Shown: one piece after another, positions 47,437 to 56,527 of the stretch
Layout of the letters: every line of letters begins with the position of its first letter
Position numbering within the stretch: position 1 is the first letter of the stretch
Assembly (NCBI GenBank): GCA_964612485.1
Contig: CAZTFF010000018.1
Span: 12,598-76,597 of the forward strand
From: an uncultured Caldilineaceae bacterium
GTDB taxonomy: Bacteria; Chloroflexota; Anaerolineae; 4572-78; J111
Direction of reading: 5' to 3'
Length of the DNA stretch: 64,000 nt
The notes under the pieces: model-generated
What the model saw: only the letters and a program-made list of their open reading frames with translations
Database searches by the model: none
What the model was told of the DNA's origin: nothing
Translations under genes and position numbers: made by a program

Positions 47437-47534
47437 GTAGCAGGGTAGCAGAGTAGCAAAGTAGCAGCGCTTGCCTTGCTACCCTGCTACCTTGCTACCC
47501 TGCTACCTTGCTACCTTGTAACCCTGCTACCCTG
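47437..47534. repeat. Inverted arrays of an 8-nt word: 4 x GTAGCARR facing 7.5 x YYTGCTAC
   Basis: gtagcagg gtagcaga gtagcaaa gtagcagc (47437-47468), the spacer gcttgc, then cttgctac cctgctac cttgctac cctgctac cttgctac cttgtaac cctgctac cctg (47475-47534). It can fold into a hairpin of about 30 bp in several registers. Confidence 0.85.
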
Positions 47535-52804: not shown

Positions 52805-52952
52805 TTGTCCATTCGGTAGGAGTGTGCTATACTGCAATCCCGGTGCGAACTTACAGAGGATGAATGATGGCTCATTTTCGCCTGGATAAAACTATAACAT
52901 ATCGTCAACCCAACAATCACTGACCCGATTCTCCGGAATCGGGTATTTTTTT
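52805..52952 (+). promoter_or_regulatory. Candidate pyr leader/attenuator: promoter + 19-codon leader ORF + intrinsic terminator
   Basis: TTGTCC (52805-52810), a 17-nt spacer with TG, and TATACT (52828-52833). SD AGAGGA is at 52855-52860. The leader ORF ATGATG... runs 52864-52923 (MMAHFRLDKTITYRQPNNH). A 9-bp hairpin pairs acccgattc with gaatcgggt (52923-52944), followed by T7 (52946-52952). Confidence 0.5.
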
Positions 52953-54048
52953 GCCTAAATCACAGAAAGCGAGCAATATTTTGAGATTACCCGGTTTGAT
53001 CGATGTGCATACCCATTTACGGGTTCCCGGCGGCGAACACAAAGAGGATTTTGCCACCGGCACCGCCGCCGCGCTGGCCGGCGGCTTGACCATGATCCTG
53101 GCCATGCCCAACACCTCGCCGCCGCTCACTACAGTTGACGTGTTGCGGGAAACCCGTCGGAAAGCCCAACAATCCATCTATTGTGATGTTGGGCTTTTTG
53201 CCGGCGCTGGCCCGGCGCAGCGAGATCATTTGCCGGATTTAGCCCCCCACGCTGCCGGCTTGAAAATCTACCTGAACGACACCTTTGGCCCGCTGCGGGT
53301 GGAAGATTTGCTAACCCTAATTGCATGCTTCAAAAATTGGCCGCGCAACAAAATGATCGCCATGCACGCTGAAGGGCAGAGCGTGGCCGTGGGCATCGGC
53401 CTGGCCGCGGCTTACGATCACCCCGTTCACCTTTGCCACATCAGCCGCCAAACCGAAATTACATTGATTGCCGCCGCCAAACAGCGGGGCCTGCCGGTAA
53501 CGTGTGAGGTTACGCCGCATCACCTGTTCATGACCCAGGCTGATACCGAACGGTTGGGATCACGCGCCGATATGCGCCCTACGCTGGCCGCTCAGGCCGA
53601 TGTGGACACGCTGTGGGCGCACCTCGACACTACCATCGATTGCATTGCCACCGATCACGCCCCCCACACGCTGGAAGAAAAAAAATCGGACAACCCGCCG
53701 CCGGGCATTGTGGGGCTGGAAACCTCGCTGCCGTTGATGTTGACGGCTGTCAAAAATGGCCGTCTTTCGCTCGACCGGCTTGTAGAGTTGATGTCCACCA
53801 ATCCGCGCCGAATTTTTAACCTGCCGCCACAGCCCGACACCTACATTGACGTTGATTTTGATACTCCATACACCATTTCCAATGCCGAACTCCAGACCAA
53901 ATGCGGCTGGTCTCCCTTTGACGGCTGGAACGTGACCGGGCGGGTGCAGCAAGTCGTCCTGCGCGGCCAGCCTGTCTACGATTTTTCCCAACCCGATCTG
54001 AAACGCAGAATTTTGGCCCAACCCGGCAGCGGGAAACTTATTCCGTAA
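52951..54048 (+). CDS. pyrC: Dihydroorotase (short, CAD-DHOase-like type)
   Basis: [43 protein letters not shown] (HxH metal site), GLKIYLN (carboxylated Lys region), HAEG, CHIS, and ATDHAPH. The start is uncertain: TTG 52951 lies inside the terminator T tract, and the alternative is TTG 52981. Confidence 0.88.
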   Translation: [365 protein letters not shown]

Positions 54049-54072: not shown

Positions 54073-55488
54073 TTGAAAAACAAAAGCTTTGTAGAAAAAC
54101 TCACCGGCGCGATTACCCGCAATAATTCGCTGCTGTGCGTCGGTTTGGACCCCAACCCGCAAAAATACCCCGATCATTTTGGCTCCACTATCGATGAAGA
54201 AACATTGTTCCAATGGGGCCGCCGCATCGTCGAACAAACCGCCGATCTGGTATGCTGTTACAAACCCAACAGCGCTTTTTACGAGCAGTACGGGGCCGCT
54301 GGCTGGCAGGCCCTGTGCCGGACCATCGCCGAAGTCCCCAACGATATTCCCGTTCTGCTCGATGCCAAGCGCGGCGACATCGGCAGCACCGCCGAAGCCT
54401 ACGCCCGCGCTGCTTTTGAAACCCTCGACGCGGATGCCATCACCGCCAACGCCTACCTGGGCGGGGACAGCATTGCGCCGTTCCTGGCTTATCCAGGCAA
54501 GATGGTGTTTGTTTTGTGTTACACCTCTAACCCGTCGGCCCAAGAAATGCAGGAATTTGGCCCGGCGGACGAGCCTTTGTTTGAATTTGTGGCGTATCAG
54601 GCCCAAAGCTGGGGCAGCGAGGCACAGATTGGCTTTGTGGTTGGCGCTACGCAGCCGCAAGCCCTGGCCCGGTTTCGGGAACTCAACCAAAACTGGGTAT
54701 TGGCTCCCGGCGTCGGCGCTCAGGGCGGCGATCCGGCAGCGGCACTCTCTGCCGGTCTGAATAGTGATGGTCTGGGCATGATCGTGCCTGTATCGCGGGG
54801 CGTGATTTATGCTGATGACCCTCGCGCGGCAGCGGCAGCCCTGCGAGACGAGATCAATCTGGCCCGGCAGCAAGTTGGGTCAAAACAGGCTGTTTCGGCT
54901 CATACAGACCTGATCCTCAAATTGCACGAGGCGGGCTGCGTTCAGTTTGGCGATTTTACCCTGGCTTCGGGCCGGCAGTCGCCGTTTTATATTGACCTAC
55001 GCCGCGTGCCCGGCGATGCCGCGTTGTTAAAACAGGTGGCCCGCGCTTACGCCGCCATGCTTCGCCCCCTTTCTTTCGATCATATTGCCGGCGTGCCCTA
55101 CGCCGCGCTGCCCATTGGCACCGCCGTGGCCCTGTTGCTGAACAAACCGTTGATCTATCCGCGCAAAGAGACCAAAGCGCACGGCACCGGTAAAAGCATC
55201 GAAGGGGTTTTTGCGGCGGGCGACCGGGCGGTGATGATCGAAGATTTGGTGACCAGCGGCGGCAGCGTGATCCAAGCGGCTGAGTTGTTGCAGGCCGCCG
55301 GGCTGGAGGTGTCGGATGTGGCCGTGTTGATAGACCGCGAACAGGGCGGCGCTAATAACCTGGCCGAAAAAGGCTACCGTCTCCACGCCGCGCTGCAACT
55401 ATCAGAAATTCTTACCGTTTTACATCAAACAAATCGAATTTCCACCCAACAATACCAACGGGTACAAGCGTATTTGGCCGAAAATTAA
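54073..55488 (+). CDS. pyrFE: Bifunctional OMP decarboxylase (type 2) / orotate phosphoribosyltransferase fusion
   Basis: N-terminal half: LCVGLDPNP and LLDAKRGDIGSTAEAYA (type-2 PyrF). C-terminal half: GDFTLASGRQSPFYIDLRR and VMIEDLVTSGGS (the PyrE PRPP loop). TTG start at 54073 after GGAGG. Confidence 0.88.
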   Translation: MKNKSFVEKLTGAITRNNSLLCVGLDPNPQKYPDHFGSTIDEETLFQWGRRIVEQTADLVCCYKPNSAFYEQYGAAGWQALCRTIAEVPNDIPVLLDAKRGDIGSTAEAYARAAFETLDADAITANAYLGGDSIAPFLAYPGKMVFVLCYTSNPSAQEMQEFGPADEPLFEFVAYQAQSWGSEAQIGFVVGATQPQALARFRELNQNWVLAPGVGAQGGDPAAALSAGLNSDGLGMIVPVSRGVIYADDPRAAAAALRDEINLARQQVGSKQAVSAHTDLILKLHEAGCVQFGDFTLASGRQSPFYIDLRRVPGDAALLKQVARAYAAMLRPLSFDHIAGVPYAALPIGTAVALLLNKPLIYPRKETKAHGTGKSIEGVFAAGDRAVMIEDLVTSGGSVIQAAELLQAAGLEVSDVAVLIDREQGGANNLAEKGYRLHAALQLSEILTVLHQTNRISTQQYQRVQAYLAEN

Positions 55489-55537: not shown

Positions 55538-56527
55538 ATGACAACCCTAAAACCCCTTTTTGATTTAGATGAACTGACCTCGGCCCCGGCCATCGGCAAC
55601 GGGATGACGGGCCAGGACATTTTGTCGGTTGCCCAATTTGACCCGGAAAAACTCTCTTACATTTTTACCCGCGCCCGCGAAATGCGAGACATGGTGCAGA
55701 AAGTGGGCGGTACCACCATGCTGGCCGGCTCGGTGCTAACATGTCTGTTTTACGAACCCAGCACCCGCACCAGCGCCTCGTTCATTGCCGCCATGGAACG
55801 GCTGGGCGGCAGCGTCATCCCCATCACCCAGGGCGTGCAATTCAGCTCGGTGAGTAAGGGCGAAACGCTGGCCGATACCATCCGCACCCTGGAACAGTAT
55901 TCCGACGTGATCGTGCTGCGCCACCCGGAAATCGGCGCGGCCAAAACCGCGGCAGATTATGCTGATGTGCCCATCATCAATGCCGGCGATGGCACCGGTG
56001 AGCATCCAACCCAGGCGCTGCTCGATCTCTTTACCATCCGGGAGGAGTTGGGCACGGTTGATGGATTGAAAATAGTCATGGTGGGCGATTTGCGGTACGG
56101 GCGCACGGTTCACTCCTTAACCAAGCTGCTGGCCCAGTATGATGTCAGCCTGCGCTTTGTCTCGCCGGAAATTTTGCGGATGCCGCTGGTGATCATGAAT
56201 GAGGTCATCGACGCCGGCATGGATGTCCGCGAGACTCACGATGTGGCCGACGTGATTGAAAATGCCGATGTGCTGTACGTGACCCGCGTGCAAAAAGAAC
56301 GTTTTACCGATCTGGCCCAGTACGAAGAGGTGAAAAATCAATACGAGATCACCTCGGAGTTGATGCAAAAGGCCAAAGACAAAATGGTGGTGATGCACCC
56401 CCTGCCTCGCGTGGGCGAAATTCATTACAATGTTGATGACGACCCGCGCGCGGCTTATTTCCGGCAGGTGAAAAACGGGATGTACATTCGTATGGCGCTG
56501 CTGGCCGCGGTTTTGGGCAAGGCATAA
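55538..56527 (+). CDS. pyrB: Aspartate carbamoyltransferase catalytic subunit
   Basis: [24 protein letters not shown], and [11 protein letters not shown]. Confidence 0.93.

Follow-up and report, generated by a model that had tools for sequence, protein, structure and literature searches.

The leader in front of pyrC in the window (the whole stretch of DNA analysed, 64,000 nucleotides) is best read as a ribosome-dependent transcription attenuator of pyrC, pyrF-pyrE and pyrB, for which the signal would most likely be sensed by RNA polymerase; we give this reading a probability of about 0.6. It rests on the anatomy of the leader, its conservation, the selection on its small open reading frame (ORF), the covariation of a 5'-terminal hairpin (P1) and the absence of both an antiterminator and PyrR, from which we infer that translation would suppress termination, where transcription would start and what the signal would be. 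The elements of the leader and the genes behind it are, in order:

52805-52810, + strand: -35 hexamer TTGTCC, from direct reading and a consensus scan.
52825-52833, + strand: extended -10 box TGcTATACT, from direct reading and a consensus scan, with a 17-nt spacer from the -35 box.
52840-52843, + strand: C7 C8 G9 G10, predicted start region and first four pairs of P1, 7-10 nt past the -10 box.
52840-52849, + strand: 5' arm of P1, CCGG(U)GCGAA, from the leader fold.
52855-52860, + strand: Shine-Dalgarno sequence (SD) AGAGGA in the loop of P1, from direct reading.
52864-52923, + strand: leader ORF of 19 codons plus TGA, MMAHFRLDKTITYRQPNNH, with ATG at 52864, a second in-frame ATG at 52867 and TGA at 52921-52923.
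52877-52885, + strand: 3' arm of P1, UUCGCCUGG, equal to codons 5-8 of the leader ORF and beginning 13 nt after the A of AUG, from the leader fold.
52923-52944, + strand: terminator hairpin ACCCGATTC / GAATCGGGT, 9 bp, loop TCCG (UCCG), arms at 52923-52931 and 52936-52944.
52946-52952, + strand: U7 tract of the terminator, from direct reading and a scan.
52981-54048, + strand: pyrC (dihydroorotase), Pfam Amidohydro_1, with the TTG start taken from alignment with relatives.
54073-55488, + strand: pyrF-pyrE fusion (OMP decarboxylase and phosphoribosyltransferase), Pfam OMPdecase and Pribosyltran.
55538-56527, + strand: pyrB (aspartate carbamoyltransferase), Pfam OTCace_N and OTCace.

The near-consensus promoter proposed in the initial annotation, TTGTCC and TATACT 17 nt apart with an extended TG, was recovered at its place and matches the consensus at 9 of 12 positions. 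AGAGGA and the 19-codon ORF were found as described, and so was the 9-bp hairpin with its T7 run, which ranked first among the terminators in 8 kb (9 pairs, 5 GC) and folds at about -15 kcal/mol. Scanning gave 3 promoter-like sites, with 5.1 in shuffles, and 13 terminator-like sites, with 10.6 in shuffles; in neither scan do such matches count as rarer. Since promoter and terminator matches are common in shuffles, the significance of the leader comes from its conservation and not from the single sequence. The T7 run had been described as reaching the start of the pyrC ORF. The run is present, but only the first in-frame TTG (52951) lies there, and alignment with relatives places the likely start of pyrC at the TTG at 52981 (MRLPGLIDVH), 28 nt past the run. 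The relatives of this pyrC come from MAGs labelled Anaerolineae, Promineifilaceae, Ardenticatenaceae, Caldilineaceae and Leptofilum (Chloroflexota). As pyrB is found downstream of pyrC in 50 of 80 genomes and the gene upstream of the leader is conserved in 0 of 80, the leader belongs to pyrC.

The same layout of promoter, ORF and terminator precedes pyrC in about 60 non-identical leaders from related Anaerolineae. With a covariance model of the terminator module (R1), the pyrC leader scored 46.8 bits in its own genome and the next match 28 bits, and the module is single-copy there. In 41 relatives, one strong match per genome was detected, always before pyrC; four weak extra matches correspond to ordinary terminators after unrelated genes. 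A regulon of copies placed before other genes was rejected on the basis of this single copy and of the nature of the weak matches. When the own genome was searched with a regular expression for the promoter followed by a CCRGYG start, 9 places were returned, none of them before carA or pyrD. About 62 of 80 further genomes carry the module at a distance of 25-200 nt upstream of pyrC, and an even sample of the class has it in only 5 of 151 genomes, which restricts the sequence family to the family of the window and its near relatives. Outside this sequence family, four leaders of family f4 (L024-L027), whose pyrC is about 52% identical, were read by eye; they have an unrelated leader sequence with the same logic, in which TATATAAT is followed by an SD-AUG ORF that appears to enter a different GC-rich terminator, GAGCCGAC...GUCGGCUC-U6-7, and then by pyrC.

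The coding potential of the leader was analyzed in 62 non-identical leaders, the start codon being picked by ATG, SD and position and not by ORF length. From the start codon to the hairpin, the leader ORF frame holds 7 stops in 1337 codons and reaches the hairpin without a stop in 58 of 62 leaders, compared with 91 stops in 1321 codons (8 of 62 open) for the +1 frame and 58 stops in 1310 codons (21 of 62 open) for the +2 frame; related leaders are not independent and these counts overstate the statistics, though the effect spans many genera. To judge from this comparison, the leader ORF is under selection to stay open. A purine-rich SD stands ahead of the start codon in about 50 of the 62 leaders as listed. 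The encoded peptides are not conserved and fall, by count, into at least 20 unrelated sequences, and no regulatory codon runs were seen on inspection of the 62 leaders. A frame kept open while its peptide varies indicates selection on translation and not on the product, and translation rather than the peptide thus appears to be the selected trait. Six leaders (L007, L008, L012, L016, L018 and L020) carry the promoter, P1 and the terminator but no leader ORF, so that control by the ribosome cannot account for everything in all lineages. In leader L067 no stop separates the ORF from pyrC, with which it is in frame across the terminator, giving a 409-codon frame that may be due to a sequencing frameshift or be a real fusion.

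The position of the ORF endpoint relative to the hairpin, which the initial annotation had proposed to compare among relatives, is concentrated around the base of the hairpin. Measured from the first hairpin base, the stop codon begins at -4 to +6 nt in 32 leaders (-2 in this window) and at +12 to +15 nt, within the hairpin, in 5; in 21 leaders the ORF extends past the terminator, and the stop comes earlier in 3, including the sister-species leader L004 (-24). This clustering is partly due to the conserved UAGCCUGAUCC, which stops two of the three frames there. The sharing of the first hairpin base by the TGA codon, reported initially, is seen here and belongs to the family-wide mode, but the exact overlap varies within the genus (-2, -24 and read-through). 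In E. coli, moving a stop codon from 28 to 5 bp before a terminator lowers termination from about 90% to less than 10%, an effect which needs translation, is lost on uncoupling and is gone beyond about 27 nt (PMC4824070).

No RNA structure competing with the terminator was found. Across 17 relatives, 98% of the terminator helix is paired and 3 of its pairs show compensatory changes. When the leaders were folded as before synthesis of the 3' arm, upstream pairing of the 5' arm reached a median of -1.5 kcal/mol versus -16.3 kcal/mol for the terminator; the values for this window are -1.5 and -14.8 kcal/mol. An antiterminator formed by an upstream AAUCA box and the YGAUU of the 5' arm was rejected, this pairing being too weak at that median and not conserved. 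The earlier failure to see a convincing antiterminator stem is thus borne out, as is the lack of a good PyrR-binding consensus. Indeed, the PyrR binding loop RF00515 gave no match in the window region (E up to 10) nor in the whole 96.8%-complete genome. The genome search for pyrR that had been advised returned, for NF003549, a best match of 24 bits, the cut-off being 138; no PyrR over the cut-off was found in 41 related genomes, whereas 6 control genomes have one. A PyrR-like match of 185 aa looks like an ordinary purine phosphoribosyltransferase. Control by PyrR was rejected for want of both the gene and the RF00515 site. A known RNA family was likewise rejected, as no Rfam 15 family matches the leader (best match E = 4.6, on the terminator only), and no published description of the leader was found in literature searches. 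In the same genome, the CTP synthase N-terminal domain PF06418 was not found, and pyrG is probably located in the unassembled part.

The minimum-energy fold revealed a second helix, P1, which encloses the SD and the AUG of the leader ORF and which, together with the pyrC-like C7C8G9G10 start region, is absent from the initial annotation. P1 comprises 9 bp with one bulge (4 bp, a bulged U, 5 bp). Minimum-energy folding yields it for 50 of 60 leaders, as opposed to 8% of shuffles, and C7 and C8 form its first pairs in 50 of 60 leaders. Covariation between R9 and its partner Y can be counted without folding: G9 occurs with CCGG in 29 leaders and with CUGG in 6, A9 with CUGG in 19 and with CCGG in 0. 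Judged by these counts, P1 is a real covarying helix.

The bases at the foot of P1 keep a fixed distance to the promoter. A TAnnnT hexamer is present at the equivalent place in 64 leaders, and a TTG-type -35 hexamer recurs in the leaders of relatives at a spacing of 17-18 nt. Relative to the last T of the -10 hexamer, CCRG has its first C at position 7 in 57 of 64 leaders and the profile of the start region reads Y5 Y6 C7 C8 R9 G10 U11 G12, with Y5 in 61, Y6 in 61, C7 in 60, C8 in 62, R9 in 57 and G10 in 57 of the 64 leaders. The E. coli K-12 pyrC promoter, read directly, has TATCCT-ttgtgt-CCGG, i.e. C7C8G9G10 at the same offset, and its transcript a CCGGC...GCCGG hairpin running into the SD. 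According to a review, a start at C is favoured there when CTP is high, and the two extra C residues allow a hairpin blocking the ribosome-binding site, while low CTP/GTP leads to a start at G and to translation (PMC6524683). A leaderless ORF starting from the conserved G10-U11-G12 (GUG) was also considered and rejected, such an ORF being short in 33 of 47 GUG leaders. It reaches the hairpin mainly where it is by chance in frame with the SD-AUG ORF; in this window it has 6 codons and ends at the UGA that abuts the AUG.

In most leaders the 3' arm of P1 starts 13-18 nt after the A of AUG, which is within the stretch covered by an initiating ribosome. Removal of C7 and C8 is predicted to cost P1 a mean of 3.4 kcal/mol and to weaken it from -12.6 to -8.4 kcal/mol in this window. 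The predicted unpaired fraction of the SD-AUG region remains about the same whichever start site is used (0.55-0.57), because this region lies in the loop either way. A start-site-dependent pairing-up of the SD-AUG bases was rejected on these predicted values. As the SD and AUG are not directly paired, any effect of P1 must come from loop closure. The ribosome-binding site of pyrC lies about 100 nt downstream of P1, which encloses the leader SD and AUG and not the SD of pyrC.

These observations are compatible with the following sequence of events. By default, transcripts from the promoter at 52805-52833 would end at the intrinsic terminator at 52923-52952, for want of a competing RNA structure. 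Read-through would occur when a ribosome on the 19-codon leader ORF trails RNA polymerase closely; at the leader stop codon this ribosome would sit on the 5' arm of the hairpin and block the terminator. That occlusion, following the logic of pyrBI and rph-pyrE, had been put forward in the initial annotation, and it gains support from the 58 of 62 open frames, the stop clustering and the lack of a competing stem and of PyrR. P1 would gate access to the leader ribosome-binding site, its 3' arm lying 13 nt past the AUG, in the footprint of the initiating ribosome. The pyrimidine signal would be sensed by RNA polymerase, as in the enterobacterial 'repression without repressors': at high CTP, a start at C7/C8 would give the full P1, little leader translation and termination, and at low CTP, a start at G9/G10 would give a weaker P1, leader translation and read-through. 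Low UTP or CTP may also strengthen the coupling of ribosome and polymerase by slowing elongation. Taken as a whole, the leader could be a two-stage, protein-free nucleotide sensor in which the choice between a CTP and a purine start closes P1 over the ribosome-binding site of the mini-ORF and translation of the mini-ORF blocks the terminator, that is to say a hybrid of the enterobacterial pyrC and pyrBI/pyrE mechanisms, independently evolved and conserved across an order of PyrR-less Anaerolineae. We put this complete model forward tentatively, with less than even odds. Several observations count against the ribosome-dependent attenuator with P1 and a signal sensed by RNA polymerase, namely the SD-AUG accessibility that hardly moves with the start site, the limited mean loss of about 3.4 kcal/mol without C7C8, the ORF-less leaders, the stop of L004 at -24, a conservation of the terminator stem that does not depend on the frame and a spacer that is not U-rich.

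Other explanations of the same anatomy have been weighed. One of them keeps the ribosome-occluded terminator and makes the elongation rate of the polymerase the only signal, as in the pyrBI/rph-pyrE type: low UTP or CTP would slow or pause the polymerase, P1 would serve solely for pausing, synchronisation or mRNA stabilisation, and the position of C7C8 would follow from P1 standing at the 5' end. The leader ORF and its stop geometry fit this explanation equally, the start site weakly affects the predicted SD-AUG accessibility, and short leaders need a pause for the ribosome to catch up (PMC4824070). A place for such a pause can be seen in one subfamily (MAWLTGKK...), where an internal hairpin and then U3-5 lie about 20 nt before the terminator. 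Against this, the spacer ahead of the terminator is rich in A (A 0.34, U 0.25, C 0.24, G 0.16), its longest U run having a median of 3; a conserved U-rich pause tract was not found in the spacers of the leaders, and the spacer of this window has few U. A U-rich UTP pause tract was rejected accordingly, and UTP-sensitive pausing or coupling, which the initial annotation had taken as the sensor, lacks sequence support. The elongation rate also leaves unexplained why Y5 Y6 C7 C8 R9 G10 hardly changes in either sequence or offset when the remainder of P1 is variable. We hold this explanation to be unlikely.

The terminator stem GCCYGAUYC...GRAUYRGGC and the 8-10 nt before it are conserved whatever the frame of the ORF, and the conservation of the stem and upstream box exceeds what occlusion by a ribosome requires. 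A conserved palindrome (GAWTC...GAWTC or GATCC...GGATC) forms the core of the terminator, whose adjoining upstream box, AAUCAAYGG / AUUCAUAG, is equally frame-independent. This conservation and the ORF-less leaders, which retain P1 and the terminator, would suit an RNA-binding protein other than PyrR, or a small ligand, that sets termination by acting on P1 and/or the terminator stem, the leader ORF being auxiliary or incidental; terminator-embedded aptamers are known from other systems, and an undescribed aptamer in the leader is possible. We nevertheless consider this explanation improbable, since no Rfam family matches, the conserved positions are mostly in helices and not in junctions or loops, the strong stop depletion in one frame is left unexplained, and no candidate regulator gene is linked to the leader, whose neighbours vary. 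It is similarly improbable that the leader is no pyrimidine sensor at all and only a small ORF, or a short transcript, ending at a terminator of its own, past which leaky read-through, or read-through dependent on translation, would express pyrC constitutively or in step with growth rate (translation capacity). Such a view would agree with the non-conserved leader peptides and with the fact that no signal-specific feature (regulatory codons, U-tract) has been demonstrated. It is at odds with the T-run lying only 28 nt from the pyrC start, which leaves no room for another promoter, with an element that occurs once per genome, found only before pyrC and in many genera, and with a clade devoid of PyrR, in which another pyrimidine control is expected. 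The ribosome-dependent attenuator with a signal sensed by RNA polymerase is for these reasons preferred.

Three other loci of the own genome were noted. Outside the window, pyrD stands alone (C3:3258-3330, locus L146) behind TTGACA-17-TACAAT-agcgat-ACTTTTTG, with a five-T run directly after the likely start. This layout is that of the UTP-sensitive reiterative transcription of E. coli pyrBI, upp and codBA. Several relatives, both same-genus genomes among them, instead have pyrD after pyrB. At C5:27661-27830 (L168), a promoter-like TTGATT-17-TATTAT is followed at the same offset by CCCGGUGUUUCCGGG and, after about 110 nt more, by a terminator-like hairpin GGCCAGCA...UGCUGGCCUUU; from its sequence it looks like a small RNA or a leader, and it had no Rfam match. 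Upstream of carA (C53:1400-1515), the spacer is full of GTAGCAAGG / CTGCTACC words, which resemble the octamer arrays described in the initial annotation at positions 47437-47534 of the window.

To our knowledge, nearly all detailed work on repressor-free pyrimidine control concerns enterobacteria and Bacillus. The present leaders are an unrelated sequence family in a phylum rich in uncultured members, which appears to combine a start-site-dependent 5' hairpin with a ribosome-occluded terminator. If confirmed, nucleotide sensing by RNA polymerase would be an evolutionarily recurrent solution, the leader would provide a compact protein-free regulatory part of about 115 nt, and its description would be useful for annotating pyr control in Anaerolineae, a group common in wastewater and sediments in large numbers.

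Compared with known systems, the pyrC leader shares with the trpL, hisL and pheL attenuators the succession of a promoter, a short leader ORF and an intrinsic terminator. Unlike them, it has no regulatory codon runs and no antiterminator alternative, and its stop abuts the terminator, whereas in amino-acid operons the terminator lies more than 20 nt past the leader stop (PMC4824070). Attenuation of transcription, as proposed here for a pyr leader, also underlies the PyrR systems of Bacillus subtilis and Thermus, and in the latter a translated leader peptide takes part as well. The present leader differs from the PyrR systems by the lack of PyrR (0 of 41 genomes), of the RF00515 loop and of anti-terminator and anti-antiterminator stems.

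The resemblance is closer to pyrBI (PyrL) and rph-pyrE of E. coli and Salmonella. There as here, an intrinsic terminator lies between the promoter and the pyrimidine gene, an upstream ORF brings the ribosome to the terminator hairpin (its translation being predicted from sequence in our case), and neither an RNA antiterminator nor a repressor protein takes part. The rph-pyrE ORF ends just before the hairpin and the pyrBI ORF runs through it, and both variants occur in this Anaerolineae family. At 19 codons, the leader ORF falls far short of the 135-bp pyrBI leader gene (PMC4824070). The Anaerolineae leader shows no sequence relationship to pyrBI or rph-pyrE and no Rfam match; in contrast to both, the controlled gene is pyrC and the phylum Chloroflexota, and unlike pyrBI it has no conserved U-rich pause tract and holds its leader ribosome-binding site within a 5'-terminal hairpin.

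With the CTP/GTP-sensitive start-site selection of E. coli and Salmonella pyrC and pyrD, the common features are CC and then GG 7-10 nt past the -10 hexamer and, for pyrC, the two C at the base of a 5'-terminal hairpin and the identity of the regulated gene. At the level of the letters compared, the likeness of the start region to that of E. coli pyrC is exact in sequence and offset. The two leaders differ in what the hairpin reaches: in E. coli pyrC it interferes with ribosome binding to the structural gene, its 3' arm lying on the SD, whereas P1 encloses the ribosome-binding site of the leader ORF, with its 3' arm in codons 5-8. The output would consequently be transcription termination here and is translation of the structural gene in E. 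coli pyrC. The element would combine known kinds of control and is not regarded as a new principle.
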